Below the pieces are notes generated by a model that was not told the origin of the DNA, did no database searches, and was given only the letters and a program-made list of their open reading frames with translations. A stretch of DNA of 64,000 nt, taken from an uncultured Candidatus Saccharibacteria bacterium (GTDB taxonomy: Bacteria > Patescibacteriota > Minisyncoccia > 2-02-FULL-40-12 > GWA2-44-9). A program made the translations under genes and the position numbers. Position 1 is the first letter of the stretch. Each line of letters begins with the position of its first letter. Below, in pieces: positions 18,664 through 43,388 of this stretch. The DNA lies in the NCBI GenBank assembly GCA_964436165.1, contig CAYTBY010000001.1, positions 6,777-70,776 on the forward strand, in the 5' to 3' direction.

Positions 18664-18686
18664 AAAAAAGAGCCTCCTCGGCTCTT
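18664..18686 (-). terminator. Terminator overlapping the stop of the SDR gene
   Basis: aaaaaa + AGAGCC-tcct-CGGCTCT. Confidence 0.45.
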
Positions 18687-25033: not shown

Positions 25034-25621
25034 TTAAATTAGTCCAAGTTTCTCAAGGCGAGGCTTGGCTAATAGTGTAGTTACGATCGAATAAGAACTA
25101 TTCGATTTAATCTGATATACAGCATTAAGCCAATCATTCCATGTCATGAGGTCAACTTCGATATCTTCATGCTTGTCAAGGTTTCTTTTACCAGTATCCA
25201 CGCAATCAAGGCAAAGAAATGGGTAATATGATATATCTGAACTCGCCGGGTCGTGGCAAATATTTAAGTCATTTGAAAGTGAAATAATTTTACCTGATTG
25301 GTAGCCGGTCTCTTCTTTCAGTTCTCTTTCGGCTGCATTAGCCGGACTTTCTCCGGGCATAATATTACCCCCCGGTAATTCGACAACCACTTCATCCGGC
25401 CCCATTCGGTATTGCCTAATTACAACCACTCTGCCATCTGAAGTAAGGGGTAGAATGAAAGATGAGATGTATTTACCCTTAAACTTTCCATAGGATTCGA
25501 CAGTTCCGGTCTTAGGCATTTCATAATCTTGGCTGATAAGTATTTTGCTGAAAACTTTAGCGACAACTTTTTCTTCACCGACCTTGCGCGGGATTCTGAT
25601 GGCCATTAGACAACACCCCAT
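25034..25621 (-). CDS. Nudix hydrolase (paralog 1)
   Basis: Nudix box GGNIMPGESPANAAERELKEETGY. 16-nt overlap with the IMPase-family gene. Confidence 0.7.
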   Translation of the reverse strand: MGCCLMAIRIPRKVGEEKVVAKVFSKILISQDYEMPKTGTVESYGKFKGKYISSFILPLTSDGRVVVIRQYRMGPDEVVVELPGGNIMPGESPANAAERELKEETGYQSGKIISLSNDLNICHDPASSDISYYPFLCLDCVDTGKRNLDKHEDIEVDLMTWNDWLNAVYQIKSNSSYSIVTTLLAKPRLEKLGLI

Positions 25622-26466
25622 CTACTGATATGTTCAGCCGTTTCGTCCCTGAATTTATTGACAAGCAACTCATGAATGATTGGATTTGCCGCAAGTATTG
25701 ATTTATAACCTACTTTCCATGGCTTGAGTTCTAGATTGGTGACTTTTGCTCCTGCCCCTTTCAAAATAATAGCGGCCGCGGCTATGTCTTCGGAGTCGAG
25801 TCCGGTAGCAAGAACTGCTTCAAGTCTGCCGTCGGCCACAAAGCTCAACGATGCTACAGCGCACGCAAATCCCACATCCGTCATAATACAAGGATTTTCC
25901 ATGGCTTTTACTAGGAAAGGCAGATGACTAGTTCTAAAACCTTGTTTATTTTTTAACTCTTTGCCAGAGTAAAAGCTCATGATAACCTTATTGAGTGAAT
26001 CTGCGTTGTTGACCTTAATTTGTTTACCATTGAGCCGTGAAGGTTCTCCAGCAACTCCGGTATACAGATAATCTTTAAACGGCATGTATATTACACCCAA
26101 TACAGGATCGCTACCTATACACAATGCCCGTGAAAAACAAAATCCATCAAAGTAGCGTCTTGTATATGCGATTGTTCCATCAAGTTCATCGTCAATCCAA
26201 GTGAAGGGGCTATCAGTTTTGTGGTCGTCTGATTCTTCAGAGTGAATATTGTGTTCCGGATAGGTTTCAGCGAGTTGTTTCCTTAACATAGCCGATACTC
26301 TAGTATCAGCTTCAGTTCTGAAATGAACCCTTCCCGTCCATTCGATATCGTGATTAGAGTCGTATAAATCCATATGGATTTTACCGGCAGCTTTGGCCGA
26401 GGCAGTCGCAAATTCTAAAAATTCTGACTTTCTTTGTATAAATTCAGTCCATGGGTCTGGGTGCAT
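25606..26466 (-). CDS. Inositol monophosphatase / CysQ family phosphatase
   Basis: EE metal site (SEESDD), WIDDELDGT, and a C-terminal DxxD-type motif. Confidence 0.65.
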   Translation of the reverse strand: MHPDPWTEFIQRKSEFLEFATASAKAAGKIHMDLYDSNHDIEWTGRVHFRTEADTRVSAMLRKQLAETYPEHNIHSEESDDHKTDSPFTWIDDELDGTIAYTRRYFDGFCFSRALCIGSDPVLGVIYMPFKDYLYTGVAGEPSRLNGKQIKVNNADSLNKVIMSFYSGKELKNKQGFRTSHLPFLVKAMENPCIMTDVGFACAVASLSFVADGRLEAVLATGLDSEDIAAAAIILKGAGAKVTNLELKPWKVGYKSILAANPIIHELLVNKFRDETAEHISRWGVV

Positions 26467-26573
26467 TTTGTGCCCTTTTCTTTTTTAATGAACAGACCGT
26501 TACATATTGTATCCCTAATCATTCCAAGAGTCAAGTTGCTAATTCTTATAGGAATGTTAAAGTATTTGTATTT

Positions 26574-27071
26574 ATGGCTATAATTACAAAAAAAGATTTT
26601 ATTAAAATTAGACAAAAACACTCAGATAAAAAGATTGTCTATTGCGACGGCTCTTTTGATCTTACTCATGCCGGTCATGTATTATTTTTTGAAGAGGGTA
26701 AATCAATGGGGGATGTATTAGTGGTTGGAGTCGGTGCGGATTCAGATATTAAAAAATATAAAGGCAAGACTAGGCCGATTCTTAACCAAAGCGTGAGATT
26801 GAAAACAATAGATTCTCTCAAGCCGGTGGATTATAGTTTTTTGAATAAGCTTCCTAGTCAAAAAAACCTTCTTTCGCATTTGGAAGTTAATTTTAATAAG
26901 TTAAAACCCGACGTCTATCTAATTAATGAAGATGCGTTTAATATTGAATATCGAAAAAAAATTTCAAAACAATATAGTGTGAAAATAGTAATGGCTCATC
27001 GGGTTTGTCCCCCCAATTTTGATAAGATCTCCACGTCTAAGATCATAGATAAAATTAAGAGACTAGACTAA
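26574..27071 (+). CDS. Cytidylyltransferase-family nucleotidyltransferase, HxGH class (paralog 1)
   Basis: CDGSFDLTHAGHV is an HxGH motif. The ISTSKI motif is present. An ATG at 26574 is preferred; the ORF table start at 26451 adds 41 non-conserved residues. Confidence 0.6.
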   Translation: MAIITKKDFIKIRQKHSDKKIVYCDGSFDLTHAGHVLFFEEGKSMGDVLVVGVGADSDIKKYKGKTRPILNQSVRLKTIDSLKPVDYSFLNKLPSQKNLLSHLEVNFNKLKPDVYLINEDAFNIEYRKKISKQYSVKIVMAHRVCPPNFDKISTSKIIDKIKRLD

Positions 27072-27697
27072 TGTCTACTATCCATCCAAAATTTCAAAAA
27101 ACTCGTCTTCCTAGAATAGTCATAACTGGTCCGCCTGGTGCTGGAAAAACGACCATGGTTAAAATTTTTGGTGATGAATTCGGTCATGTTATTCGTCCAG
27201 TGCCTGAAGTTGCTACGATGACAATCGTTAAATTGGGGCTTATTCCCGGCACACCGAGGTCTGAAATTGTTTTTGAAAGCGTTTTTCAGCATATGATGTA
27301 TCGAATGCAGGAGTTATTTGAGCATATGGCCGATGTGTTGGCTAGGGAGACCGGGAAAAAGGTTTTGCTTTCGGATAAGGGAAGGGTTGATATCGCTGGA
27401 CATATTCGTGGCGGGAAGAAGGAATATGAAGAACTTTTTAAAACCACTCTTAAAAAAGATTATTCTTTATATGATTTAGTATTGTTTTTAGAATTACCAT
27501 CTAAAAAAGTGTACAACCAAATTCGTAAAAATAATCCTGCCCGAGGAGAAACTTATGAAGATGCCAAAGCTACGGAGGCGAAAGTAAAAAAAGCATGGCA
27601 AAATCATCCAAATTTTAAATCTATTTCAAATTATGGTGGTTGGGAGGGGAAAGTTCAGAAAGCTCGTCTGGCGATAGCAGAATTTTTAAAAATTTGA
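27071..27697 (+). CDS. P-loop NTPase, putative small-molecule or nucleotide kinase
   Basis: Walker A motif GPPGAGKTT. TAATG coupling to the upstream gene. Confidence 0.4.
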   Translation: MSTIHPKFQKTRLPRIVITGPPGAGKTTMVKIFGDEFGHVIRPVPEVATMTIVKLGLIPGTPRSEIVFESVFQHMMYRMQELFEHMADVLARETGKKVLLSDKGRVDIAGHIRGGKKEYEELFKTTLKKDYSLYDLVLFLELPSKKVYNQIRKNNPARGETYEDAKATEAKVKKAWQNHPNFKSISNYGGWEGKVQKARLAIAEFLKI

Positions 27698-27751
27698 CAG
27701 ATCAATAAAAGAACTGTATATTTGAACGAGTAATTTAAAAAAGGATTGATC

Positions 27752-28354
27752 ATGGCTATCATCTGTCCGGAAAAGGTAAATGAAGAAAAAATTATCGGCC
27801 AAGTACACAATAAAGTATTAATTACCCAGGATTTTAAAGATCCAAGAACCGGAGAAATTATACCCTGGGGCATGTTGAAAGGATTAAAGCTGTCTTCAAT
27901 TATTTTACCGCTAACGATAGATTATAAAGTAATAGCCATTCGTCAGTTTCGATATGGGGCTAACCAGGTTGTTCTAGAATTGCCAGGCGGAAATATAGAA
28001 GGAGACCAAACTTCGCAAGATGCGGCACAATCTGAATTATTACAGGAGACGGGCTATGTAGCAGAAAAAATAATACCTCTTTCTTCAAGTGGTATTATCG
28101 CAGAGCCGTCTTGCCTTCAAGGGGCTGCTTATTTTGGTTTTCTGGGGTTGAACTGTGTCTGGAAACAAAAGCCCAAATTAGATGACAGTGAAGATATAGA
28201 GGTGGTAACAATGGACTTAGATGAATGGATTTGGATGATGTACAATATTCCAAATAAAGTCAATGGCATGCTTGCATTGACATTTTTGGCCCTTCCCCAT
28301 CTTGGACTTTTTTCACCTGGAGAACCCAAACCAACTTGGCAGAACGTTTCTTAG
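27752..28354 (+). CDS. Nudix hydrolase (paralog 2)
   Basis: Nudix box GGNIEGDQTSQDAAQSELLQETGY. Colinear with 25034..25621. ATG at 27752 with AAGGA 6 nt upstream; the table start at 27746 is TTG. Confidence 0.7.
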   Translation: MAIICPEKVNEEKIIGQVHNKVLITQDFKDPRTGEIIPWGMLKGLKLSSIILPLTIDYKVIAIRQFRYGANQVVLELPGGNIEGDQTSQDAAQSELLQETGYVAEKIIPLSSSGIIAEPSCLQGAAYFGFLGLNCVWKQKPKLDDSEDIEVVTMDLDEWIWMMYNIPNKVNGMLALTFLALPHLGLFSPGEPKPTWQNVS

Positions 28355-28419: not shown

Positions 28420-28929
28420 ATGGAGAGTAAGAAAACCATTGCTCAGATAAAAAAAGATTTGATAGCTTTACGCAAAAATAATCCTGGCAAAAAAATTGTT
28501 TTTTGTTCGGGAAGTTTCGATCTTCCTCATGCCGGACATGTTCTTTTTTTTGAAGAGTGTAAAAAACTAGGCGATATTTTGGTAGTCGATTTAGGCAGTG
28601 ACAAGTCTTTGAGATTGACGAAAACGCCCGATCGCCCGATTCTTAATGAGCATGTGAGATTTAAAGTCGTTTCTTCTTTGAAGCCGGTTGATTATTGTTT
28701 TGTGGATAGAACAAAAAACGGACATAAAGTAAGTTCACTTATTTACTACTTCAAAACTTTAAAACCTGATATTTACGTTAACAATACAGATGCCAAGCGA
28801 TTAACTGAGGGCCAGGAAGTGGCTAGGAAAAACGGAGTAAAAATGGTTGTTTTGGACCGGACATGTCCCCCGGAGTTTATATCTATTTCTACCACTAAGA
28901 TTATTGAAAAAATTAAAAATCTCAATTAA
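28420..28929 (+). CDS. Cytidylyltransferase-family nucleotidyltransferase, HxGH class (paralog 2)
   Basis: CSGSFDLPHAGHV and ISTTKI, a paralog of 26574..27071. Confidence 0.6.
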   Translation: MESKKTIAQIKKDLIALRKNNPGKKIVFCSGSFDLPHAGHVLFFEECKKLGDILVVDLGSDKSLRLTKTPDRPILNEHVRFKVVSSLKPVDYCFVDRTKNGHKVSSLIYYFKTLKPDIYVNNTDAKRLTEGQEVARKNGVKMVVLDRTCPPEFISISTTKIIEKIKNLN

Positions 28930-28931
28930 AA

Positions 28932-28955
28932 ATCCCGCTTGTGGCGGGTTTTAAT
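28932..28955. terminator. Bidirectional terminator
   Basis: CCCGC-ttgtg-GCGGG followed by TTTT. Confidence 0.45.
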
Positions 28956-29538
28956 GTTTGTGCTCAATATATGAAGCGCCTTTTCTGTCTCTATCTGATA
29001 AAATCGGATCAGTGGTTGGCCAGCTGATATTAAATCTCGGGTCGTTCCATTTAACTACATTTTGGATTTCAGGGCCTGAATAATATTGGGATTGATTATA
29101 ATGGAAAAGGATCTGATCGCTTAGAGCCAGGTGGCCGTTACAGTGCCTGGGCGGGACTAATATTTGTAGGCCATTCTCGGCCGATAAAATAAATGACTCC
29201 CATTTGCCGAAGTGTTCCGAAGCCGGATTATAATTCAGGACTACTAAGTAAAATTCTCCCAAAAGGCAAGTTATCAATTTCCAGGTTCTAGAATCGCCGT
29301 GCAGTCCGCGTAGGGCATTTTTTATTGAAAAAGAAGCAGTTTGTTCGCCATCCTCGAAGTCTATAGTGATTCCATTGGCGAAGTAGACTCTTTTGCTATA
29401 AAGTTCCGCATAGTAGCCACGATGATCTTTGGTTACTTTTCTTTTTATTTTTAATACTCCTGGTAGAGTAGTCTCTTGAACTGTAATGTTTTTAGCTAAT
29501 TCCTCATCATTCGGTCCAAGCTGGTATTTATTAACCAC
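28951..29538 (-). CDS. RmlC-like cupin, NDP-4-keto-6-deoxy-sugar 3,5-epimerase family
   Basis: The conserved RGLH motif is present, followed by ...KLITCLLGEFYLVVLNY. Cupin-sized (195 aa). Equivalent to DdahB/MlghB-type epimerases in 6-deoxyheptose pathways. Confidence 0.6.
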   Translation of the reverse strand: MVNKYQLGPNDEELAKNITVQETTLPGVLKIKRKVTKDHRGYYAELYSKRVYFANGITIDFEDGEQTASFSIKNALRGLHGDSRTWKLITCLLGEFYLVVLNYNPASEHFGKWESFILSAENGLQILVPPRHCNGHLALSDQILFHYNQSQYYSGPEIQNVVKWNDPRFNISWPTTDPILSDRDRKGASYIEHKH

Positions 29539-29627
29539 CAGAGCCCCCCATATTTATTAAAAGACTAAAAACACAATACAATATTTTAGTTGAGTTTGTC
29601 AAAAATCTTAGAAGGATCGGTCATCGG

Positions 29628-30611
29628 TCACATGTTGTAATAAATCACCTGGCTGCCCTGATTCTCAAATTTAAATGGAACATGAAGAAGTCTTTTTAAT
29701 TTTTCTTTGATCCGAGGTTGAATTTCGGGCGGGGCAAAAAATAATATAAATCCTCCTCCTCCAGCCCCCAACAACTTACCGCCAAGAGCGCCAGCTTTGA
29801 TGGCCGTGTCGTAAATTGCATCAATTCTGGGATTGCTTATTTTACTGGACAATTTTTTCTTATATTCCCAGCTTGTTTTTAGAAGTTTGCCAAAATCTTC
29901 AATGGGCTTTTCATCTTTAATAATTGAAAAACCTTCGCTAGCTATGGCGGTCATGATTTTTAGTTCTTCGTTGGTCTTTTTTATGTTTTTTATCTGTATT
30001 TTAGCGATCTCTGAAGCGTTGCGAGACAAGCCGGTAAAAAATAGCATACAATGGTCCTGAAGCAGGTTCAGGTGTTCTGGACGCATTATTATCGGTTGAA
30101 TGGAAATATGATGTGAGCCGCCGAAATCTATTTTATTAAAACCGCCGAAAGCTGCTGCTGTCTGGTCTTGCGAGCCGACATTTTCTTTGATCATATTCTG
30201 CTCAATGTGAATAGCTTCAAGCGCCAATTCTTTCTTGCTTTTCATTATGCCCTTTAGGCCATACAGGGCATTTATAAGTCCAACCGTAAATGACGAGCTA
30301 GAGCCTAGGCCTGATCTGGCCGGCAGATCGCCGTCATGATGGATTTCTAGTCCGTGGTCTATATTAATGAATCGGAGACATTCTCTGACCGAAGGGTGGT
30401 CAATTTTATTTATATCTTTGACATTCTCTGATTGAGAATAAACAATACGGTGTTTGTATTTAAAAAACGGCGGCAAAGGACGGCAAGTTATGTAGCAGTA
30501 TTTATCTATGGTCGTAGATAAAACAGTCCCGCCGTTCTCTTTGTACCAGCCGGGGTAATCGGTTCCTCCGCCGAAAAACGATATTCTAAAAGGTGTTCTG
30601 GTGATAATCAT
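29628..30611 (-). CDS. GHMP kinase, D-glycero-D-manno-heptose 7-phosphate kinase (HddA)-like
   Basis: GHMP ATP motif LPARSGLGSSSSF. N-terminus MIITRTPFRISFFGGGTDYP is typical of HddA and fucokinase. Confidence 0.7.
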   Translation of the reverse strand: MIITRTPFRISFFGGGTDYPGWYKENGGTVLSTTIDKYCYITCRPLPPFFKYKHRIVYSQSENVKDINKIDHPSVRECLRFINIDHGLEIHHDGDLPARSGLGSSSSFTVGLINALYGLKGIMKSKKELALEAIHIEQNMIKENVGSQDQTAAAFGGFNKIDFGGSHHISIQPIIMRPEHLNLLQDHCMLFFTGLSRNASEIAKIQIKNIKKTNEELKIMTAIASEGFSIIKDEKPIEDFGKLLKTSWEYKKKLSSKISNPRIDAIYDTAIKAGALGGKLLGAGGGGFILFFAPPEIQPRIKEKLKRLLHVPFKFENQGSQVIYYNM

Positions 30612-30665
30612 TGATAGGTTTTAGGTATTTAGCTTTTAGGTGTTAGAATCCTAAGAAGTTAAAAC

Positions 30666-32639
30666 CTAATTCTCTAAATTCCTTGTATTTAATAGCCAAG
30701 CATATCCTCGCCAGCGGTCTTTTTTTGTGATTTCATGTAAAATCAAATCTCGGAAACCGGTTACTTCGCTTTCCACTGGCCAAATATTGCTAGTTCCCAT
30801 AGTTTTAAATTTAGCCGTGGCTATTTTCTCCATATCCCTTGTTTCCAGTAATTTATTTAGGACAGGGTCCTTGGTATAATCTCCGCCTTCGATTGCTTCC
30901 ATCTCCGTGTTCATATAAAGCGATTTACTGCTTGTACAAGGAATCACTATCCATCCGTTTTTAACATCAGCTATGCTGTTAATATAGTGCACAATATAGG
31001 GCGGCGCCATATCTTTGGGGGGCAGATAATCTGATTTTCCTATGCCATGAATTGCTTCTATGAAAGATTTATTATAGTTGGTGTTGTAAGTGTAAAATTC
31101 TTTTATTCCAAGGCGATCCAATGTGTTTATTAAGTTAGTCACGCTCATTCTTGCTGGATAAACATCTGAAAAAAATTTCCATAAATTCCAAACAAGAGCG
31201 ACCAAAATCAGGACTATAAAAATTGGGACACTCTTATCATAGAAAAATAATTGAATTAAATACGCACCACTACCGATAGCCAAAAAAATACCCACCAGTC
31301 CCGGAGAATATGTTCTGGAAAGCTGGGGAGCCTTGGTTATTTCTGCCCAAATAACAGGTGATAAGGAAAACAACAAAATTAAAACCATGCCCACTTCATT
31401 GAAAATTAAATTACCTTGCAAGAAAAAGGGAGAGACAATTAGGCCAATGGCAGAGGCTGTGAATATTATAGTATGAACGGGGACCATCCTAAAAAATACT
31501 TTTGGCAACCAAATTAACCCCGCTCCTTGGGTATAGCGAGTAACGGTCAAACCTTTCTTTGCGAAATAATCAACATATAGCCTGAAGTGTGATTTTTTTC
31601 TGATTTGAGTCTCCAGCAAAAATGCAAAGAAATATTTAAAACTTTTTTTAATATCCGGCAAGGTTAAAGTTAAAAAGCCGATAATGAATCCAATTAAAAT
31701 TAGTAAAAGATATCCCCAGCTGATCAGATTAACTAACAGTAATAAGGCGACAGTAGCATAAAGACCCCAGACAGTTAGTTGTTTGACTCTTTTGCGGGCA
31801 TGCTCTAAGTAGAAGTCTAAAGAAAATTTATCTCTCCCGCGGATTAGTTTATTTAGGAATCTTGGCGCTGTCTGATAGTATATTGAGGCAACTATTTTTT
31901 TATGGACAAGCCATAGAAAAACTATCGTTAAGCCGTATAAAATTAGCATTGTCATGTTAAATAATACCAATTGATTATTCCAGATTTGAGTATAAATATT
32001 ATCAAAAGCATTATTGGCGATTATTGTTCGGTGGCTTGAATAAAAAACAGCAGTAAAGAAGAGAGGTGTATATTTAATTGTTGAGGCAGAGGCAAATTGG
32101 GCAAAACAAAATATTATTCCTGCCCCGATTAGCCAGATGGCCGATTCCGGCCAACCGCCATTTGCTTGTTGTATAAACAGAACAGATAAGAGAAAAAGCA
32201 TGGTGGCTACATTGGCATGGCCTCCATAAAGAGCAACTTGCCAGCTCCATAGGGAAGTCAAGAATAGTATTCCTAGAAATAAAGCGATGGCAGGGTTCCA
32301 ATATCCAAGTGCGATAAGAAATATTAAAAATGAAGAAAAAGCGGTGGATATGCCGCCCAGGGCAGTATATGGATAATCTCCGGTTTTATTGCGAAATATT
32401 TTCTGAAAGACAGCCATCAGTATAATAGTCATATCTTTCATGCCAGTTTTTCCAAGGCCCATTTTATGTAAATCTGAAAACCATCGCCATCTTGAAGACG
32501 TCGCCGCGGCATAAGCCATTAGTTCGTTGTCGGTATTGGGACCATTGAATTGCACCCCGCGGACCAGGAACATAAAAATCAACGCTGCCATAGATGAAGA
32601 CAGGGCCATAAATATTATGCTGGTGATTGGATCTGACAT
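30666..32639 (-). CDS. Large polytopic membrane protein (657 aa) with a C-terminal soluble domain; putative glycan polymerase or GT-C-like transferase
   Basis: More than 12 hydrophobic segments. No diagnostic motif recognised. Confidence 0.3.
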   Translation of the reverse strand: MSDPITSIIFMALSSSMAALIFMFLVRGVQFNGPNTDNELMAYAAATSSRWRWFSDLHKMGLGKTGMKDMTIILMAVFQKIFRNKTGDYPYTALGGISTAFSSFLIFLIALGYWNPAIALFLGILFLTSLWSWQVALYGGHANVATMLFLLSVLFIQQANGGWPESAIWLIGAGIIFCFAQFASASTIKYTPLFFTAVFYSSHRTIIANNAFDNIYTQIWNNQLVLFNMTMLILYGLTIVFLWLVHKKIVASIYYQTAPRFLNKLIRGRDKFSLDFYLEHARKRVKQLTVWGLYATVALLLLVNLISWGYLLLILIGFIIGFLTLTLPDIKKSFKYFFAFLLETQIRKKSHFRLYVDYFAKKGLTVTRYTQGAGLIWLPKVFFRMVPVHTIIFTASAIGLIVSPFFLQGNLIFNEVGMVLILLFSLSPVIWAEITKAPQLSRTYSPGLVGIFLAIGSGAYLIQLFFYDKSVPIFIVLILVALVWNLWKFFSDVYPARMSVTNLINTLDRLGIKEFYTYNTNYNKSFIEAIHGIGKSDYLPPKDMAPPYIVHYINSIADVKNGWIVIPCTSSKSLYMNTEMEAIEGGDYTKDPVLNKLLETRDMEKIATAKFKTMGTSNIWPVESEVTGFRDLILHEITKKDRWRGYAWLLNTRNLEN

Positions 32640-34441
32640 TAGCGTATGTTATAAACTTTATAGAAATACGAGTCTTTATTTTTAAGCAGTTCTGCGGGTG
32701 ATCCTTGTTCTGTAACTGTACCACCGTTCATGACTATCAGGCGGTCTGAGCTTGTTACAGTTGAAAGGCGATGGGCAATAGCAATGACCGTAAGAGAGCG
32801 CTTTAATTCATCTATGGATTTTTGAATATGAACTTCTGATTCGTTATCTAAGGCGCTGGTAGCTTCATCTAGGATTAATATCTCCGGTTTTCTTAATAAG
32901 ACTCTTGCGAGGATGATTCTTTGGCGTTGACCGGCTGAAAGCTTAACACCATTTTCACCCACAAGCGTTTGGAATTTATCGGGAAGTTCGTTTATAAAAT
33001 CATAAGCTTGACTGATTTTGGCGGCTTCTGCTATCTCTTTTTTGGTAGCCATATCATTGTAAAATCTGATGTTGTTTTCTACCGTATCATTCAGTAAAAA
33101 TATCTCTTGCGAGACGTAGCCAACTTTACTGCGCCACTGAAATAAATCTATTCTTGAGATAGGCTTACCGTCGATAAGAATTTCTCCAGCTCCTAATTCA
33201 AATAGCCTTAGAAGGATATCAACCAACGTAGTTTTACCGACTCCGGATGGCCCGATTATGCCTATCATTTCACCGCGCTTTAATGAAAAGCTAAGATTAT
33301 TGAGGACTTTTACGTCATTGTTGTAGCCGAAAGTGATATTGTTAATTTCAAGTTTGTCTTTAAACTCAAATGATAAAATACCGGTATTGATTTCTTGGTG
33401 GCGGTCAGCCTCTTTTTCATAGTCTGAGATCACTTGCAGATATGGCAAAGCCTCATTGACGCCATTTAGTTGGGTGTGCATCGCCTGACTAAATGCAAGT
33501 ATTTTTTGAATTAAATATATTGTTGCAGCAAATGAAGCGATATTAAATTCTGTATTATAGAGATATTCAAATGCAAAAAGGCCTGAAATATAAAATAGTC
33601 CGACAGGTTCAATAAATGAACCAGGCGCTCGGTTGTAGGCCGCTATTTTGAGTCGTATCTGACGCAATTTTGCAAGGTATGAGTTGGTATGATCAATAAT
33701 CTGATCTTCTGTGGCGGTTACTTTAACTGTTTTTGAACCCAGGGCATGCTGACTGATATGATGATTTAAGCTTCTGTTAACACCAGATAATTTATGAGCC
33801 TCTTCTCTAATCCCGTACATCAGAGGCTTTACAAAAAGAAAGATTATTAAACTTACTACTAAGGTTAATATTGTCAGAGAGAGCGAGATATTAATTGCTA
33901 CGATCGTATATGCAATAAGACTCGTTAGAGTCATGATCATCGCATTGATAGTACCAAGAATTCCCGAACACGCATTAACGTCATACATTAATATTGATTC
34001 AAGGTGGCCGGTTTTTTGCTCCATCAGATAGGGCCAGTCTGCTTTTAAGGTCTTTTCGAACAATTCACTGCGCTTTTTCATCTCGTAGTCAGCGGAGACT
34101 TTTTCGTTGTAATAAAATGCACAATAAGTGATGATGCCTTTAAGAATAAACAAAACTAGCACTAAGCCTAGAACATAGAAAAGATTATAGGGTATATGAA
34201 AGAAAGCTAAACCATCTTGTATAAACTTAGATATACTATCCAACTCCTTAATGTTTACTCCTCCTCGACTTCCGACTAGGGCAAACAGGGGAATGACTGC
34301 TCCGATTCCAATACCACCGAATAAACCAGTTATGAACCCCAGGATTGTGGTAACGATAAATCTTCTGCGATAATACCAGAATGATGTCCGGATGATCTTT
34401 AGAGTATTTGTAATTTTTTGGGCGTCGATTAATGCGGGCAT
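32639..34441 (-). CDS. ABC transporter, fused permease/ATPase exporter (type I, MsbA-like)
   Basis: Walker A GPSGVGKTT, ABC signature LSAGQRQR, and Walker B ILILDEATSALD. The N-terminal domain has 6 TM helices. Confidence 0.85.
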   Translation of the reverse strand: MPALIDAQKITNTLKIIRTSFWYYRRRFIVTTILGFITGLFGGIGIGAVIPLFALVGSRGGVNIKELDSISKFIQDGLAFFHIPYNLFYVLGLVLVLFILKGIITYCAFYYNEKVSADYEMKKRSELFEKTLKADWPYLMEQKTGHLESILMYDVNACSGILGTINAMIMTLTSLIAYTIVAINISLSLTILTLVVSLIIFLFVKPLMYGIREEAHKLSGVNRSLNHHISQHALGSKTVKVTATEDQIIDHTNSYLAKLRQIRLKIAAYNRAPGSFIEPVGLFYISGLFAFEYLYNTEFNIASFAATIYLIQKILAFSQAMHTQLNGVNEALPYLQVISDYEKEADRHQEINTGILSFEFKDKLEINNITFGYNNDVKVLNNLSFSLKRGEMIGIIGPSGVGKTTLVDILLRLFELGAGEILIDGKPISRIDLFQWRSKVGYVSQEIFLLNDTVENNIRFYNDMATKKEIAEAAKISQAYDFINELPDKFQTLVGENGVKLSAGQRQRIILARVLLRKPEILILDEATSALDNESEVHIQKSIDELKRSLTVIAIAHRLSTVTSSDRLIVMNGGTVTEQGSPAELLKNKDSYFYKVYNIR

Positions 34442-34443
34442 TT

Positions 34444-34689
34444 TTACCAGTGTTTTATTCGTGATTTTATTTTTTTCTTCAGGTCTGAGTAGGCTCTAAC
34501 TGCCCTTCTTTCCATGCGGGGAGAGACTAATCTTAGCAGTTCTTTCCCCAGGACTCTATATTGACCGCCGACCTTATTAGCTCTAATCAAACCCTTTTTC
34601 AGGAGTCGTTTCAGGGTGCTGTTTGATATTTTTAGAAGTAACCTGGCTTCGTTAGTTGTGTAAACTTCGTTCGGATTTATATCTGGCAT
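34444..34689 (-). CDS. Small helix-turn-helix DNA-binding protein (excisionase/MerR-like HTH)
   Basis: LLKISNSTLKRLLKKGLIRANKVGGQYRV is an HTH pattern. 81 aa. Sits just downstream of the tandem repeat array. Confidence 0.45.
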   Translation of the reverse strand: MPDINPNEVYTTNEARLLLKISNSTLKRLLKKGLIRANKVGGQYRVLGKELLRLVSPRMERRAVRAYSDLKKKIKSRIKHW

Positions 34690-34696
34690 TCTCTAA

Positions 34697-34726
34697 ACGT
34701 ATCAAAAAGTGTCAAAAGGTGTCAAA
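34697..34726 (-). promoter_or_regulatory. Three tandem 10-bp direct repeats (acgtatcaaa / aagtgtcaaa / aggtgtcaaa), the same motif as at 4571..4610
   Basis: Read directly from the sequence. On the minus strand they read TTTGACAC / TTTGATAC. Confidence 0.45.
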
Positions 34727-34741
34727 TAAAGTAATAAACAT

Positions 34742-35323
34742 TTAGACATGATTTTTGAAAGCATTATCTATCAGTGAACATAACTCATGAATCATCATTA
34801 TGTGGGCTTCCTGAATATGCTGGGTATTATGAGAGGGTACAACCAGCTTAAGGTCGCATAAATTACTCATTTGTCCGCCGTCTTTACCCAATAACCCGAC
34901 TGTCATCAACCCATTCTTTTTCGCGATGTTCAGGGCATTAATTAAATTAAGGGAATTACCGCTTGTGGAAATGCCGACGAATATATCGCCGTATTTGCCA
35001 AGACCCTCGATTTGTCTCGAAAAAACATAGTCATAGCCGAAATCATTGCCGATAGCGGTAATTATGGATGAATTCGTTGTTAGGGCGATGGCTGGCAGGC
35101 CTTTGCGTTTATGGATAAATTGTCCAGCCAGCTCTGCGGCAAAATGCTGGGTATCGGCCGCTGAACCGCCGTTGCCGGCGATTAAAATCTTTCGGCCCAT
35201 CTTTAGGGCAGTTATCATCCGGCTGGCAATTTTCTCAATTTCAAGTAAAAATTCCTTGTCTGATGCGATTTTAAGCTTAGTTTCTATTGATTCGAGAATT
35301 GATTTTTTAATATCCCTTATCAT
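34742..35323 (-). CDS. gmhA: D-sedoheptulose 7-phosphate isomerase (SIS domain)
   Basis: [24 protein letters not shown], and the HELC motif of the GmhA family. Confidence 0.8.
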
Positions 35324-36290
35324 TTAAATACCGGTCAATTGTTTTTTTGAGGCCATTTTCAAAATCAGTAGTGGCTTTAAAGCCGAATTCTTTTTTGGCT
35401 AAAGTTGCGTCAACCATGCGCCTTGGTTGGCCATCGGGTTTTGATTTATCCCAGTGGATTTCACCCCTAAAATTCATAAGTCTGCAAATTATCTTTACGA
35501 GATCGCGTATTTTTATTTCTCTGTTTGCTCCTAAGTTAACCGGATCTGGTTTGTCGTATTTTTCTGTGGCTAAAATTATGCCTTCAGCGCAATCGTCCAC
35601 ATAGAGAAATTCTCTGGAAGCTGTGCCTGTTCCCCAGACGTCTATGTATTTCTTTTCCGCTTTTTGGGCATCAGCCACTTTTTTTATAAGTGCCGGAATG
35701 ACATGGGAAGTTTCAGGATTGAAATTATCACCTGGGCCGTAGAGATTTACCGGCAGAAGGTAAATCGCATTGAAATTGTACTGCTGGCGATAGGCTTGAG
35801 CTTGGACGAGGAGCATTTTTTTAGCAAGTCCGTAAGGGGCATTTGTTTCCTCCGGATAGCCGTGCCAGAGAGTTGTTTCGGCAAAGGGGACTGACGTGTG
35901 CTTGGGGTAGGCACAAATGGTTCCAATAGCGACGAATTTTTTTACTCCAGCTTGGCGGGCCGTCTCCATTAATTGAGAACCCATCATTAGATTGTCGTAA
36001 AACATTTGACCGGGAATCTTTTGGTTATATCCTATTCCGCCAACAACAGCGGCAAGATGAATTATAATGTCCTGGTTTTTTACAACTTTTTGACAGTTTT
36101 CCCACTTAGTCAGGTCATAATCCTTAGAGCGGGGGACTGATATATTTTTTTTGGGCACTCCCCGTTCCAACAATTTTTTCACCACAAAAGAGCCAAGAAA
36201 CCCGGCTCCACCGGTAACGAGAATTTTTCTAGTGCTGAGATTTACCAAAGCACTAGCCCTGAGCTTTGTCGAAGGGTTTGCGGAGTTCAT
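35307..36290 (-). CDS. GDP-L-fucose synthase family 3,5-epimerase/4-reductase (Fcl/WcaG-like); could act on a GDP-4-keto-6-deoxy-hexose or -heptose
   Basis: Motifs [29 protein letters not shown] and KPDGQPR, colinear with E. coli Fcl from memory. Confidence 0.75.
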
Positions 36291-36298
36291 TTAAATTT

Positions 36299-39200
36299 TT
36301 ATTTTTTCTCGTTTATGTCTGCCCAGACCATTATTTTAACGAGATCTTTAAATTTTGTCTTTGGTTGCCAACCGAGCATTTTTTTAGCTTTTGAGGAGTC
36401 GGCAATGAGATGATGGACTTCAGCCGGGCGGTAATAGCGGGGGTCTATCTCGACATATTTTTTGTAGTCGCCAAGGCCGGCTTCTTGAAAGGCAAGTTGT
36501 ACGAACTCGCGAACGGTATGGGTTTCTCCGGTGCCGATGACATAGTCATCCGGCTTTGGCTGCTGCATCATCAGCCACATAGCTTCGCAAAACTCCGGGG
36601 CATAACCCCAGTCGCGTCTAGCGTCAAGATTACCGAGGTATAATTTTTTATCCAGACCGGCTTTTATTCTGGCAATTCCTCTTGTAATTTTTCTGGTAAC
36701 AAATGTCTCACCGCGGCGGGGGCTGTTATGTATCCAAGTAAGACCTATGCCCGCAGAGAAAGTATTGCTCTCGGTTTCTAAGTCAAATAGCCAGCCGGTA
36801 TAGCCATGATTTTTTATTAGTTTAATCTCTGTCAGTTCTCTTTGCAGGTGTTTGCCTTTTCCGGTTTTTTGGTTCGAATTTATATTAAGGTGGTAATAAA
36901 GATAATTTTTTCTAAATTCCGGATGTAGGGTCATTCTTAGTTCTAGTGTATTTTTAACTAAATACCACAAACTTGCTGCTAACACGGAAGAGTTTGTGGT
37001 AAATGATTTAAATTCTGTCTTTTGATGACCGCCCCTAAGTCCATCACAGGAGTTATAGCCACTTAGAAACGCCAGGACCACCTCGTGGTTAGAATTTAAG
37101 ATGCGCTTAGGAACTCTTTTGAATAATTTTTGAGTGTAAATTTCTTTCCATATAAAACGCAAGTAATCCGCATTTCCTCTTAGCTCTGTCGATTTAATTT
37201 TATTAGCAGGGTTAAATCCGCTTGGATGATCATCTTCCCGACTACTTCCTCCGCTAACCTTTTGCCACAAATCAGCAAACCTCCTTCTTAAATTATCAGT
37301 ATTATTTATAAATCGTCCTTTCCCGTCACTGCTTATATAGCCATCAGCAACTAACATTCCCAATAATTCTGCCTCCTCTAATGTAGTAATTGTAATTCTT
37401 TGTAAGGGCGGAAGAGTTTTTAATTCTAAATTATCCCCTGGCTTTAAATTGCCTGTTTTTATTTCAGTAGCTCCTTTTAAAAATGATATATGATCTTCTG
37501 TGGCCTCATAATATCCTCCTCTACATATTACTCGCTTAATTTTTTTGTCTTTTGATGAGCCGTATTCATTCCAGGTGGCAGTCAAGGTTTTAATTTTTGA
37601 CCACTTATCTCCATCCCAAATTTCTACACCCCCGTTGCCCATAGTAATATACTTTTTTCCTTTTGTTGGATCCTCTCGATGGGGCACTATCTCTTCAATA
37701 GGAAGAATATCAATTAAGCCACCCCTTCTGATTATTACTGGTGTTTGCGCCGTGATACATTCGTGATTGAACAAAATTCCGTTAACGGCAAAAATTCCAT
37801 AGGCTTCGCGGTAGAGATTGGTCATGTTATAGGCGAAAAGCTTTGCCGCTCCGTATGGGCTCTGGGGATTGAAGGGTGTTTTCTCATTTTGGGGCGGGGG
37901 AGACGAACCGAACATTTCGGAACTTGAGGCTTGGTAAAATTTAACTTTTTTACTCGCCAAGCCGGAGCCTTTGGCGTAGCGCTGGCCCATATCTTCTTGG
38001 AAATCTCTTATTGCTTCAAGAACCCGCAGAGCTCCATTGCCGGTGATATCCATTGTATATTCTGGAATCTCAAAAGAAACCTTTACGTGGGAATTATGAA
38101 CTACTATATTGCCGACGCCTACAGCGAAATTATGTACTTCAGCCACGGTTATATCATAAACCCAGCCGTTATAATCTATCCATTCTAATTTTTTACTATT
38201 TCCTTGATTTGGCTGGTATGTAGTGCATTCTCTAAAATGCCAAACCGAATGATAGCCTGTGTTTTTATTATTTTCCTCGTTAACGGTATAGTCGTAGTTC
38301 AACAGCGTGAACAACAAACTTAATTGACATGCAAGTTTATATGAATTAGTTGTATACCTAAAGCCGGTACCAGGATTTATACATCCATCGCCTTCGCACA
38401 TTTTTTCCCAAATTTCTTCTAAAAATTTAGCCTCAATCTGAGAGAACCAATAGGGAAGCTGTTTTGTTTTAGAGTTTTCTCCCAGTAATTTTCGAAGTAG
38501 ATTATACAATGCCCTTGATTTTATTTGTAGCTCCCAAACATCTTTATAATTGTCTTTTTTATGCTTGACATACCAACAACTGCCAACATAAAATTTTTTA
38601 AGATCTGATTCAAGGCTTTTAAGCCACTCTTTATTATTTGAGCTTATACCGACATACCAATTTTTATTTGCTTTATTAAAACTTGTATGACCTTCTGCAA
38701 TAAATGCCCCTGTAAATCTACAGAAAGATTTTAACGTATCTCCTTTAACTTTTCTTAAAACCTTGCTGATTAAGCCGTGCTCATCTAGCCAGAAGTATTT
38801 ATTATCAAATTTATAAACCCCGTCTAGTTTTAAAGAAATAGATTTTCTATACCTATTCGGTTTATAATTGAGTTTTCTGATGTTTAATAACCATGGATTT
38901 TCAGATGGACGACAAATTTTTCCAGTTACATCAATTACAGAATGATTAGGCGTTACAGTTACTGATCCAAATTTTTGAGATAATTTTGCGACTTTGCCGC
39001 TCCACCTATGTCTAGATATTTGTTTTATTGGGAAAAACGTTCCCATTCCATTCCACATTCCCAAAGCCCTAAGCTGAGTATTGTTTGATAAATCAATAAC
39101 TTCAACATTAGTATCATCCATTTTCTCTACTCTAACTTTACCCCTCTTTTTTACCTGTTCGCTCCACAAGTCTTCTAATGTTCTATATTCAAGTTTTTGT

Positions 39201-39517
39201 GCAGACAAAATCGGACATAGACATTCACCTGTTACTGATTGCGCCCCCAAATTATATATTTCATCGGGTTTAACTTGATAAATAATTTTTCTGATAGTTC
39301 CTGAATCTGCCAAATCACCGTGATGCAAAAACAACCTCTTGTTTCTTTCGTGAGGATCCTGGTATAAGTGGTTGAGTCGGGAAGTATTAAAAGTCGAGGC
39401 TCTTCTGACTACTCCATGAACAAAATAGCCCTTCTTCAAGAGAAGCTCGGTAAGGTAGGAACCGTCTTGTCCTGTACAGCCAAAAACCAAAGCTATTTTA
39501 TTTTTGTTTTTTACCAT
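36299..39517 (-). CDS. gmd: GDP-mannose 4,6-dehydratase homolog interrupted by two inteins
   Basis: Exteins: [12 protein letters not shown]...YNLGAQ / [12 protein letters not shown]...NGILFNHE / [18 protein letters not shown]. They sum to about 345 aa, colinear with E. coli Gmd. The start at 39517 ([13 protein letters not shown]) is preferred. The ORF is open to 39568. Confidence 0.8.
   Translation of the reverse strand: [1072 protein letters not shown]
36725..37759 (-). mobile_element. Intein 2 (about 345 aa) in Gmd, between FNHE and SPRRGETF. Starts with Cys, ends ...WIHN, with +1 Ser. Contains LAGLIDADG homing-endonuclease motifs ([24 protein letters not shown]).
   Basis: The [21 protein letters not shown] block of Gmd is split exactly at HE|SP. 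Canonical C1 and HN intein termini. Confidence 0.75.
38093..39238 (-). mobile_element. Intein 1 (about 382 aa) in Gmd, between NLGAQ and SHVKVSF. Ends ...VVHN with +1 Ser. Contains LAGLIDADG-like motifs ([17 protein letters not shown]).
   Basis: The insertion splits the contiguous LGAMSHVAVSFE-type extein motif. C-terminal HN. The first intein residue is ambiguous (Ser111 or Cys116). Confidence 0.65.
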
Positions 39518-39575
39518 AAGATTTAGGATAAATATTATCTGTTCAACTGACAATATTGACGCCCACACTCATCTG

Positions 39576-42514: not shown

Positions 42515-42532
42515 GTCTGTTCCTCCTTTTTA

Positions 42533-43048: not shown

Positions 43049-43049
43049 T

Positions 43050-43388
43050 TTATTTCTCTTCCTTTACTTCAGTTTTCTGGAGGGACCTAAGGACGGCTTC
43101 AGTTGTCCTGCTTACCGATTTGCCCGTGTATTCCATAGCCTCGTCGTGGCTAAAGTTTGCCTTTATCAGGGCATTATATTGCTCTCTGATTCTTCCGGCT
43201 AAACGTAGATCGGGATCAATAGCTTCATGAAAGTTCTGAACGATAGTTGTCTTTAGCCGGCCAAGCTTGGCTTTTAGCACTCTCTTGGTTATTTCGACGG
43301 CCAGATCCAGATCTTCTTTTGTAAAGGGACTTTCAGTTGTTGATGCCATGGTTCCTCCTTTTCTCTTTTGGAAACGGACACCACTCAA
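43050..43388 (-). CDS. Hypothetical protein (112 aa)
   Basis: ORF only. Confidence 0.25.
   Translation of the reverse strand: MSGVRFQKRKGGTMASTTESPFTKEDLDLAVEITKRVLKAKLGRLKTTIVQNFHEAIDPDLRLAGRIREQYNALIKANFSHDEAMEYTGKSVSRTTEAVLRSLQKTEVKEEK

Follow-up and report, generated by a model that had tools for sequence, protein, structure and literature searches.

Gene content of the locus

We analyzed a 64-kb stretch of DNA (the window; positions 6,777 to 70,776 of contig CAYTBY010000001.1) from an uncultured Candidatus Saccharibacteria bacterium, a member of the Candidate Phyla Radiation (CPR), with a focus on an operon in which homologs of GDP-mannose dehydratase and GDP-fucose synthase lie together with genes of nucleotide-heptose synthesis and of glycan export. 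Based on the open reading frame (ORF) listing and profile scans, the operon consists of eight minus-strand genes (28951-39568) with intergenic gaps of -17 to +89 nt. In the order of transcription these encode Gmd, an Fcl-like short-chain dehydrogenase/reductase (SDR), GmhA, an HTH_17 protein, an ABC exporter, a 657-aa membrane protein, a GHMP kinase and an RmlC-like cupin. A preliminary description of this DNA had named Gmd, the Fcl-like enzyme, GmhA, an HddA-like GHMP kinase and the RmlC-like cupin; all five are present on the minus strand (Table 1), and the same span also includes the HTH_17 gene, the ABC exporter and the 657-aa membrane protein. A terminator closes the operon, and on its far side lies a convergent plus-strand cluster. 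Two HxGH nucleotidyltransferases, NTa and NTb, are located there, outside the operon span and on the opposite strand.

The whole window is a surface-glycan locus. It encodes DegT aminotransferases, several SDRs, B12-radical-SAM enzymes, an E1 alpha/beta pair, a split transketolase and a carbamoyltransferase, as well as a Wzx-like flippase, a Wzy/ligase-like protein, a GT2 glycosyltransferase and an initiating phosphoglycosyl transferase. No RNA family was matched when the entire 64 kb was scanned against Rfam. We propose that the operon is a composite sugar-precursor and export operon within a glycan-biosynthesis locus of at least 60 kb. Our rough probability of 0.6 for this reading applies to its fucose branch, heptose branch, heptose modification and export taken together.

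Table 1. Features of the operon and of the neighboring genes discussed in the text, by position in the window.
Feature	Coordinates	Strand	Supporting matches
Cj1427-like SDR, GDP-heptose C4-dehydrogenase type	18685..19635	-	PDB 6vo6/6vo8, 378 bits, E 2.5e-112
DegT aminotransferase/dehydratase, directly upstream of the Cj1427-like gene	19635..20819	-	PF01041, E 4.6e-70
NUDIXa, canonical Nudix box, NudE-like ADP-sugar pyrophosphatase type	25034..25621	-	PF00293 E 6e-14; NudE 49 bits
IMPase/FBPase-family phosphatase	25606..26466	-	PF00459, E 1.3e-38; HisN, SuhB and CysQ models under cut-offs
NTa, HldC-like HxGH nucleotidyltransferase	26574..27071	+	rfaE_dom_II 83.1 bits; listed ORF start 26451
AAA_28 P-loop kinase-like protein	27071..27697	+	PF13521 E 9.7e-17; no NCBIfam family match
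NUDIXb, NUDIX fold, degenerate box (E to Q, R to S, E to Q)	27746..28354	+	PF00293 E 1e-7
NTb, HldC-like HxGH nucleotidyltransferase	28420..28929	+	rfaE_dom_II (TIGR02199) 94.7 bits, cut-off 181.5
Bidirectional intrinsic terminator between convergent operons	28934..28948	both	CCCGCTTGTGGCGGG with T-runs on either strand
RmlC-fold cupin C3/C5 epimerase, MlghB/DdahB type	28951..29538	-	PF00908 135.6 bits, E 1.7e-39
GHMP kinase, HddA-like	29628..30611	-	best model HddA (NF049969) 151.5 bits, under equivalog cut-off of 600
Predicted GT-C-fold membrane glycosyltransferase (ArnT/PglB/STT3-like), 657 aa, C-terminal extracytoplasmic domain	30666..32639	-	no Pfam match
ABC exporter, fused transmembrane and nucleotide-binding domains, MsbA/PglK/HepA type	32639..34441	-	PF00664 and PF00005
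HTH_17 DNA-binding protein (excisionase/MerR-like), small, 81 aa	34444..34689	-	PF12728, E 1.3e-10
GmhA, sedoheptulose-7-phosphate isomerase	34742..35323	-	TIGR00441 208.4 bits (cut-off 209.45); PF13580
Fcl-like SDR, GDP-L-fucose synthase-type 3,5-epimerase/4-reductase (Fcl/GFS)	35307..36290	-	NF047922 275 bits
Gmd, canonical GDP-mannose 4,6-dehydratase with two inteins	36299..39568	-	TIGR01472 462.3 bits (cut-off 415)
Gmd intein 2, 345 aa	36725..37759	-	TIGR01445 intein_Nterm (weak match); RFC and V-ATPase intein matches
Gmd intein 1, 382 aa	38093..39238	-	LAGLIDADG_3 (E 1.1e-16), Intein_splicing, TIGR01443

An intein-bearing Gmd and its Fcl-like partner

The Gmd ORF is 1089 aa long, three times the usual length, because it carries two inteins, on which the preliminary description was silent; its true start is probably the ATG at 39517. 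Both insertions have the hallmarks of class 1 inteins: a Cys or Ser as first residue, a block B of the form TxxH, a Ser directly after the C-terminal HN, and a host sequence that is contiguous after their removal. Intein 1 begins with Ser1 (SVTGECL), contains a TPNH block B together with a LAGLIDADG homing-endonuclease domain, ends in VVHN/S, and is inserted ahead of the residue equivalent to S90 of E. coli Gmd. Intein 2 begins with Cys1 (CITAQTP), contains a TEDH block B as well as two LAGLIDADG-like motifs, LLGMLVADG and SGYNSCDG, ends in WIHN/S, and interrupts the NHE/SPRRG motif ahead of the equivalent of E. coli S189. These inteins are real, yet they are of no new kind, as intein-bearing Gmds are common in metagenomes. 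Both insertion sites are hot spots among 120 metagenomic intein-bearing Gmds, which carry LAGLIDADG domains at the same two sites and show no essential difference from the window Gmd, and a survey of metagenomic Gmd lengths found more than 100 proteins long enough for one intein and about 15 long enough for two (range, one to three). In contrast, the nearest orthologs in related heptose cassettes, which are 70-83% identical (loci L075, L074, L130 and L079), are intein-free and continuous across both junctions.

Gmd passes the TIGR01472 cut-off even with the inteins left in. The spliced extein of 345 aa is 56% identical to E. coli Gmd, and an alignment made after intein removal demonstrates that S132, E135, Y157, K161, P190, R191 and R192 are retained and that the NHESPRRG motif is intact. 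Against solved GDP-mannose dehydratases the spliced protein scores 318-449 bits (MUR1, 449; E. coli Gmd, 387), versus 99.7 bits against 7us5, the GDP-D-glycero-D-manno-heptose 4,6-dehydratase of Campylobacter jejuni. Compared with all solved Gmds in this way, the protein does not group with the DdahA/WcbK-type enzymes.

The Fcl-like gene begins 8 nt past gmd and overlaps gmhA by 17 nt. GDP-fucose synthase is its best-matching family, though its score lies under the NF047922 equivalog cut-off of 500, and its top PDB matches are GDP-fucose synthases (174-202 bits), followed by MlghC (137 bits) and DdahC (98 bits). By alignment it keeps T107, C109, Y136, K140 and H179, that is, the SDR triad and the Cys109/His179 epimerase dyad. 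This dyad marks bifunctional GDP-fucose synthase, while the reductase-only enzymes MlghC and DdahC have R/Y and H/T, respectively, at these positions (PMC7949155). Given that the Fcl-like enzyme keeps the dyad, a separate cupin epimerase is therefore not needed. We also considered a reductase-only assignment, which was dropped: the histidine in the motif GPHDNF is His170, and both the true His179 (in NSHVIP) and Cys109 are kept.

The tight Gmd-Fcl pair recurs at 68-83% identity in the CPR loci L074, L075 and L130. With enzyme identities taken from homology and the substrate inferred, the simplest reading is that the pair makes GDP-L-fucose from GDP-mannose. The preliminary description had offered GDP-fucose as an alternative product, and the PDB scores of Gmd and Fcl together with the retained dyad make this the best reading of the pair.

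Several other CPR cassettes (L004, L080, L081, L122 and L147) carry a trio of genes that is absent from the window and encodes an HAD-type hydrolase (218 aa), a cupin (242 aa, with a faint match to mannose-6-phosphate isomerase) and a DJ-1/PfpI protein. This trio could supply mannose phosphate.

GmhA, the GHMP kinase and a conserved heptose cassette

GmhA contains a SIS_2 domain, scores 209 against the PRK13936 model (cut-off 276) and is 73% identical to the syntenic gene of L007, a Saccharibacteria contig that is the closest syntenic relative. The GHMP kinase finds its top PDB matches in WcbL (136 bits), 3k85 (134 bits) and C. jejuni HddA (119 bits), with fucokinase at 74 bits. These profile and PDB matches agree with the preliminary description in that a nucleotide-heptose pathway starts at the operon with GmhA and an HddA/WcbL-like kinase.

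The kinase is a member of a separate subfamily with high conservation. Scanning a single genome per species, we obtained 65 loci with kinases 46-82% identical to that of the window, spanning CPR, Planctomycetota, Omnitrophota, Elusimicrobia, Proteobacteria, Treponema, Clostridia and archaea. We clustered the neighboring ORFs of these loci and scanned representatives with NCBIfam. An HddC-type NTP_transferase (best model HddC) is found in 43 of the 65 loci and mostly adjoins the kinase directly; next come a Cj1427-like SDR (27-33 loci), DegT (26), a B12-radical-SAM enzyme (23), an Fcl-like SDR (20), a split transketolase (about 20) and GmhA (17). Judging from their taxonomy, the hosts with a kinase-linked GmhA are mainly ones expected to be without lipopolysaccharide (LPS) heptose, for example Treponema, Clostridia and CPR. 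In L007 the gene order is GmhA, HTH, ABC, GT-C, GHMP, RmlC, NT, NUDIX, E1 alpha/beta, carbamoyltransferase, DegT, Cj1427-like SDR and B12-radical-SAM, and Gmd and Fcl were found neither beside GmhA nor anywhere in the 21 kb of this contig examined. The split transketolase is also present in the window, with its N and C halves encoded by separate genes (12019-13856, minus strand); it could supply sedoheptulose-7-phosphate or transfer a two-carbon unit onto a keto-sugar.

A predicted Cj1427 ortholog and a putative heptose epimerase

The protein encoded at 18685-19635 is about 58% identical to 6vo6 over its full length (residues 2-315). The PDB labels this structure merely as a "putative sugar-nucleotide epimerase/dehydratase"; from the entry and its sequence we take 6vo6 and 6vo8 to be Cj1427. 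The high similarity identifies the window protein as a predicted ortholog of Cj1427 (MlghA), the conserved downstream partner of the kinase. Cj1427 is a GDP-heptose C4-dehydrogenase, and in C. jejuni its step is followed by those of the cupin epimerase Cj1430 and the reductase Cj1428 (PMC10680097, PMC7949155, PMC9978623). The adjacency of DegT to this SDR is preserved in most related loci, and DegT would act on the 4-keto-heptose.

For the operon's cupin, PDB bit scores do not separate GDP-heptose from dTDP epimerases (95-96 bits for the C. jejuni GDP-heptose epimerases, 92 for dTDP RmlC). A pairwise alignment with MlghB shows 44% identity for the cupin over residues 61-173, with retention of the catalytic set (H67, K74, Y134 and D173) and of N121 and H123; all residues that PMC7949155 cites agree with the numbering of the MlghB sequence used. 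The heptose-specific pocket has His123 and Ile56 where RmlC has Phe and Ser. His123 of MlghB has been tied to the C7 hydroxyl of the heptose (PMC7949155), and an equivalent histidine is present in the cupin (N-G-H versus N-S-H). The position of Ile56 lies beyond the aligned block and by spacing is a Ser, as in RmlC. In L075, L081 and L130 the cupin gene directly adjoins the Cj1427-like gene, and its substrate would be an NDP-4-keto-heptose. The conserved heptose chemistry thus points to C4 oxidation that keeps the 6-OH, then epimerization, then reduction or transamination, with no 4,6-dehydration of the Gmd type.

The genes around the Cj1427 ortholog follow the order of L007: the region 18685-24946 (minus strand) encodes the ortholog, DegT, the carbamoyltransferase and the E1 alpha/beta pair, with a gene for a B12-radical-SAM methyltransferase at 16508-18580. 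The genes in 16508-24946 jointly suggest a heavily tailored 4-keto- or 4-amino-heptose.

A second SDR pair is located at 5767-7709 (minus strand). The ORF at 6723-7709 is DdahA/Rmd-like, with 167 bits to Rmd (2pk3), 159 bits to 7us5 and about 95-110 bits to Gmds, and the Fcl-like ORF at 5767-6765 is without Cys109. This pair could form a 6-deoxy-heptose or D-rhamnose-type branch.

Does the operon make a 6-deoxy-heptose?

The preliminary description had read Gmd, the cupin and the Fcl-like enzyme as a trio that makes GDP-6-deoxy-heptose by the logic of DdahA/B/C and DmhA/B: Gmd would dehydrate GDP-D-glycero-D-manno-heptose, the cupin would epimerize and the Fcl-like enzyme would reduce the product. 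Some observations weigh for this model and against a fucose branch. The genes for Gmd, Fcl and GmhA form a contiguous, translationally coupled run, and Pfam scans of most ORFs of more than 100 aa found neither ManB nor ManC, the source of GDP-mannose, in the window; given these two points, Gmd may use GDP-heptose. The order Gmd-Fcl-GmhA-GHMP is repeated in L075, the canonical Gmd of L079 adjoins that cassette's own Fcl-like gene, and the operon encodes a separate cupin epimerase with the heptose-type His123. However, Gmd scores less than a third as high against 7us5, the only solved GDP-heptose 4,6-dehydratase, as against the GDP-mannose enzymes, and the Fcl-like enzyme has the epimerase dyad that DdahC and MlghC lack. 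L007 retains GmhA and the GHMP-RmlC pair without either Gmd or Fcl. Across the 65 genomes, the most consistent partner of the kinase after the HddC-type transferase is a Cj1427-type C4-dehydrogenase, for which the window has its own gene at 18685-19635. In the 44 NT-anchored loci described below, a canonical Gmd (at least 70% identity) occurs in 4 and a Cj1427-like SDR in 17. Lastly, a separate DdahA/Rmd-like SDR is encoded at 6723-7709. We consider the 6-deoxy-heptose model unlikely and prefer two parallel branches, one to fucose and one to a heptose oxidized at C4. For annotation this is a warning that Gmd, Fcl and GmhA in a single operon need not imply a 6-deoxy-heptose.

Two missing steps and the HldC-like nucleotidyltransferases

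The preliminary description had noted that an HAD phosphatase (GmhB) and an HddC-type transferase were lacking, and this holds across the 64 kb. No GmhB was detected in the window by tblastn with CPR GmhB and HAD representatives, and Pfam scans of most ORFs of more than 100 aa found no HAD domain; tblastn with HddC-type representatives (E 1e-3 or better) and Pfam scans for PF00483 likewise found no HddC. Its expectation of a non-canonical pathway is therefore borne out for both steps within the window. The GmhB of C. jejuni sits outside the capsule cluster (PMC10680097), and the missing phosphatase is therefore weak evidence on its own. One gene product of the window, the IMPase-family protein, has the metal-binding motifs DELDGT and EDIAAA. 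The family is represented in 6 of the 44 NT loci, five of which are without GmhB, while L136 has both; as a stand-in for GmhB it is a speculative and weak candidate.

For the nucleotidyl transfer, we examined NTa and NTb, which are 48% identical to each other (the NTa gene is called as 165 aa in other assemblies). For both, the best curated profile is rfaE_dom_II (E 1e-23 to 1e-27), with TagD at 28 bits, though neither score reaches the rfaE_dom_II cut-off (94.7 and 83.1 versus 181.5 bits). Their motifs are PHAGH or THAGH and ISTT or ISTS, and NTb is 31% identical to domain II of E. coli HldE over the whole domain. An AlphaFold2 model of NTb (pLDDT 90) has B. pseudomallei HldC (5xf2) as its best Foldseek match at E 3.6e-11, followed by a Thermoplasma RfaE-like protein (3glv) and then by ethanolamine-phosphate cytidylyltransferase (ECT), choline-phosphate cytidylyltransferase (CCT) and TagD at E 3.5e-8 or weaker, a lead of about 1000-fold in E-value for HldC. 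The preliminary description had called these enzymes HxGH cytidylyltransferases; the HxGH assignment stands, while the label of cytidylyltransferase type is imprecise, as the best profile and fold are those of RfaE domain II and HldC. Being of the HldC type, they are therefore candidates for the missing step and no evidence against it.

The genomic context of this family is rich in heptose genes. The family is abundant in assemblies of CPR and DPANN, and an NT-anchored metagenome scan gave 44 loci of at least 6 kb, 30 of which contain one or more heptose markers (GmhA, GmhB, HddA-like kinase or Cj1427-like SDR). Classic GmhB is present in 8 of the 44 and directly adjoins the NT in four or five of these; a NUDIX-fold gene is present in 23. 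A profile search of 1.8 billion representatives uncovered NT domains fused to a GHMP domain with HddA as its best model (P0291; also P0257), a Rosetta-stone link of the NT to a heptose kinase. In the syntenic loci L007 and L072, the order is GHMP-RmlC-NT-NUDIX with no HddC. Among loci with an orthologous stand-alone kinase, HddC-type genes are found in 4 of 20 with an NT versus 42 of 62 without (Fisher p = 2.4e-4, uncorrected for phylogeny; the loci counted are phylogenetically dependent on one another, and a few of the contigs are near-duplicates).

Because HddC and GmhB are absent, the NTs resemble HldC in profile and fold, adjoin GmhB, are fused to HddA-like kinases and anticorrelate with HddC, they are the likely replacement transferase. 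We rate it as slightly better than an even bet that they act as the heptose-1-phosphate nucleotidyltransferases of the locus, an assignment based on sequence and modeled structure. As for the nucleotide, a comparison of 23 Cj1427-like SDRs from HddC loci with 12 from NT-only loci found zero group-specific columns. Nothing therefore suggests a changed nucleotide, and these alignments indicate that the nucleotide carried by the heptose is probably the same in both kinds of loci.

The fusion proteins themselves merit description. P0291, P0283 and P0257 join an HldC-like NT, in which HxGH is changed to QSGH, to an HddA-like GHMP kinase domain, and P0257 has two NT domains and a GHMP-like domain. 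We know of no description of such a bifunctional NT-GHMP architecture. A different protein of 678 aa, which fuses an HddC-type NTP_transferase to CBS domains and to a GHMP kinase, is encoded alongside an HxGH NT in the CPR heptose cassettes of L083, L086, L092, L096, L098 and L140.

NUDIX and P-loop partners of the nucleotidyltransferases

NUDIX-fold genes are the commonest direct neighbors of the NT genes (21 of 49; by eye, six more lie beside a divergent NUDIX-like protein). In the window, NUDIXa has a canonical Nudix box (GNIMPGESPANAAERELKEETG), and NUDIXb, which is 44% identical to NUDIXa and has NudE as its best NCBIfam match (35.8 bits), has a degenerate one, as do many other NT-adjacent homologs. 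The degenerate sequence of the box suggests a non-hydrolytic or altered function. Neighborhoods with both an NT and a NUDIX gene are also found in L004, L072, L077, L093, L097, L105, L133, L135 and L144. We considered NUDIXa and NUDIXb as Gmm-like enzymes, for which the E. coli gmd-fcl-gmm cluster is a precedent, and rejected this: BLASTP similarity is limited to the Nudix box, and the proteins are NudE-like instead.

The third member of the plus-strand cluster, the AAA_28 P-loop protein, has an ortholog in only one of the related loci, L075. Triads of a P-loop kinase, a phosphatase of the GmhB or IMPase family and an HxGH NT, with kinases that are not homologous to each other, are found in L075, L077, L083, L086 and L139 and at 25606-27697 of the window; in L077, L083, L086 and L139 the kinase adjoins a GmhB-NT or IMPase-NT pair. 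In L139 the triad occurs with GmhA and without a GHMP kinase in the 17 kb examined. These P-loop kinases may be an alternative heptose kinase.

A broader proposal, which we put forward only tentatively, is that in CPR and probably DPANN a clade of the HldC fold took over the HddC step, from alpha-heptose-1-phosphate to GDP- or other NDP-heptose, with an obligate and often degenerate NUDIX partner and sometimes with an IMPase and a P-loop kinase in place of GmhB and HddA.

Weighing the nucleotidyltransferase assignment

A number of points tell against heptose as the substrate of the NTs and against our reading of the locus in general. Most family scores (HddA, Fcl, RmlC, rfaE_dom_II) lie under the curated equivalog cut-offs, the Fisher test carries the dependence noted above, and our view of the genome covers 64 kb, so that HddC, ManC and GmhB could be encoded elsewhere in it. 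NT and HddC-type genes occur together in about 10 of the 44 NT loci, including six with the HddC-CBS-GHMP fusion and L043; the NT is not a strict replacement for HddC and may have a separate role. HddA-type kinases yield the alpha-anomer of the heptose phosphate. Characterized HldC enzymes use the beta-anomer with ATP, and CTP or UTP is used by promiscuous forms with the motif (F/L)XXGRSTT (PMC11573728). That motif is absent from the window NT, which has EFISISTT instead. The proposed role presupposes a new anomer as well as a new preference for the nucleotide, and the downstream enzymes appear to be specific for GDP.

One alternative is that the HxGH transferases make a CDP-linked donor (ethanolamine phosphate, glycerol phosphate or similar) for glycan decoration, with the P-loop kinase making the phosphate ester, the NUDIX and IMPase proteins clearing by-products, and HddC encoded elsewhere. 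In sequence searches of the PDB, human ECT is the top match of the NTs, with 58-76 bits versus 40-46 bits for HldC, and fairly close relatives at 130-190 bits have ECT-like tandem cytidylyltransferase architectures with an APH kinase, or HIT or CDP-alcohol phosphatidyltransferase domains. The loci in which NT and HddC-type genes coexist, and the NT-kinase-phosphatase triads of L077, L083, L086 and L139 with their non-homologous P-loop kinases, would also fit this alternative. However, three of those triads have a classic GmhB as their phosphatase, the curated profiles favor rfaE_dom_II (83-95 bits) over TagD (28 bits), and HldC is the best structural match. The fusion to an HddA-like kinase in P0291 and the anticorrelation with HddC are likewise at odds with a CDP-linked product, and Pfam scans of most window ORFs of more than 100 aa found no CDP-alcohol transferase, LicD or phosphotransferase domain. 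On balance a CDP-linked donor seems improbable to us, and we retain heptose-1-phosphate as the favored substrate.

We give almost no credence to the idea that the plus-strand cluster is a NAD salvage module of the NadR/NadM-Nudix kind inside the glycan locus: its Pfam domain set is superficially similar (in NadR an HxGH NMN adenylyltransferase is joined to an AAA_28 ribosylnicotinamide kinase, and NadM-Nudix fusions are known), but the NTs match rfaE_dom_II and no NMN adenylyltransferase (NMNAT), NadR or NadD model at E 1e-3 or better, the AAA_28 protein has no NadR model match, and AAA_28 occurs in a single related locus whereas NT-NUDIX pairs occur within heptose cassettes in dozens.

Export genes

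The ABC exporter scores 359 bits against HepA, 323 against MsbA and 227 against PglK, all under the respective cut-offs, and by homology it is presumed to be a flippase for a lipid-linked glycan. The adjacent 657-aa protein belongs to a family found thus far mainly in metagenome-assembled genomes of CPR, one homolog of which matches PF13231. Its AlphaFold model (pLDDT 89.2, pTM 0.90) has only GT-C enzymes (ArnT, PglB, AglB and STT3) among its top 16 PDB matches in Foldseek, with probability 1.00 and TM scores of 0.26-0.39, and from this model the protein is confidently predicted to be a GT-C glycosyltransferase. The two proteins suggest that a lipid-linked glycan would be flipped and then transferred outside the membrane.

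In CPR heptose cassettes, the GT-C gene (block 30666-34441 in the window) is always accompanied by a PglK/MsbA-like ABC exporter and a small HTH_17 gene. The latter is kept at 63-75% identity upstream of the ABC or GHMP gene in L007, L010, L026, L074, L081, L082 and L122; the HTH_17 protein is a conserved cassette member and presumably a regulator.

A proposed pathway and its relation to known systems

Based on these data, we propose the following pathway. Gmd would splice out its two LAGLIDADG inteins and, with the bifunctional Fcl, convert GDP-mannose to GDP-L-fucose. In the heptose branch, GmhA would isomerize sedoheptulose-7-phosphate, the HddA-like GHMP kinase would phosphorylate the heptose at C1, and the 7-phosphate would be removed by the IMPase-family protein (25606-26466), a weak candidate, or by an enzyme encoded elsewhere. 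The heptose-1-phosphate would then be nucleotidylated by the adjoining convergent HldC-like HxGH transferases, with no HddC-type enzyme involved; homology of the downstream enzymes suggests that the nucleotide is GDP. The Cj1427 ortholog would oxidize the NDP-heptose at C4 with retention of the 6-OH, the operon's cupin would epimerize the 4-keto-heptose at C3/C5, and the product would undergo either reduction by an Fcl-like enzyme or transamination by the neighboring DegT. Additional tailoring may be the work of the locus's carbamoyltransferase, E1 alpha/beta pair and B12-radical-SAM enzymes, and the ABC exporter and GT-C transferase would flip the lipid-linked glycan and transfer it outside the membrane.

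The closest known counterpart is the route to GDP-D-glycero-L-gluco-heptose in C. jejuni NCTC 11168 (HS:2), which uses GmhA (Cj1424), HddA (Cj1425), GmhB (Cj1152) and HddC (Cj1423) in its early steps and Cj1427 (MlghA), Cj1430 (MlghB) and Cj1428 (MlghC) in its later ones (PMC10680097, PMC7949155). The two systems have in common a SIS isomerase, a GHMP 1-kinase, a Cj1427-type C4-dehydrogenase, an RmlC-fold epimerase with the same catalytic residues, Fcl-like SDR reductases and the lack of a 7-phosphatase within the cluster. In place of the HddC-type guanylyltransferase, however, the window has HldC-like HxGH transferases and NUDIX-fold proteins, and its DegT, carbamoyltransferase, E1 alpha/beta, B12-radical-SAM and split transketolase genes indicate much heavier tailoring. 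Further, C. jejuni is an epsilonproteobacterium, whereas the window's host, as a member of CPR, would be without LPS.

The NTs are similar to HldC and HldE domain II (B. pseudomallei HldC, 5x9q/5xf2; E. coli HldE) in fold, in the HxGH and ISTT motifs, in sequence (29-30% identity to HldC) and in their genomic partnership with GmhA and GmhB. They differ in their sub-cut-off profile scores and in that the partner kinase is of the GHMP (alpha-anomer) type and not of the PfkB type, and the downstream enzymes of the window are homologs of GDP-heptose and not ADP-heptose enzymes. The Ddah and Dmh systems (C. jejuni DdahA/B/C; Yersinia pseudotuberculosis DmhA/B) share with the window the cupin epimerase and Fcl-like reductase families and a DdahA/Rmd-like SDR (6723-7709), whereas the dehydratase of the operon is a canonical Gmd and not of the DdahA type. 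The colanic-acid module of E. coli, gmd-fcl-gmm-(wcaI)-manC-manB, also has adjacent gmd and fcl genes with the catalytic residues kept in the window (56% and 36% identity) and a NUDIX hydrolase and a nucleotidyltransferase nearby, a precedent for NUDIX proteins in a GDP-sugar cluster. In the window, by contrast, two inteins interrupt Gmd, the NUDIX proteins resemble NudE and not Gmm, and ManC and ManB are absent.

In sum of these comparisons, CPR bacteria appear to recombine a GDP-heptose route of the Campylobacter type with the HldC family. To our knowledge, in every characterized route a GHMP kinase works with an HddC-type transferase, or a PfkB kinase with one of the HldC type. The window, like dozens of related CPR loci, points to a third combination, of a GHMP kinase, an HldC-like transferase and a NUDIX partner. 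If true, this would widen the enzyme repertoire for NDP-heptoses and give a function to a large unannotated protein family of CPR and DPANN. Under the broader, tentative proposal given above, the NT-NUDIX pair would be an undescribed module in nucleotide-sugar synthesis, possibly for proofreading or exchange of the nucleotide carrier, and the cytidylyltransferase fold would have acquired a new nucleotide and anomer specificity. Nucleotide-activated heptoses are precursors of surface glycans, and the third combination, if true, would also mean that ultra-small, host-dependent bacteria invest in elaborate heptose-based surface glycans. ADP-, CDP- and UDP-heptose are also innate-immune agonists sensed by ALPK1 (PMC11573728).

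Two further regions of the window add to its glycan-related content. At 2463-4558 (minus strand), a PseB/FlaA1-like inverting 4,6-dehydratase (Polysacc_synt_2, 310 bits) is paired with a DegT aminotransferase, which indicates an extra branch in the same locus to a sugar of the UDP-2,4-diamino or nonulosonic-acid type. Between the operon and the gene for the Wzx-like flippase, the region 41480-46964 contains about nine ORFs of 112-344 aa on both strands that have no Pfam match.

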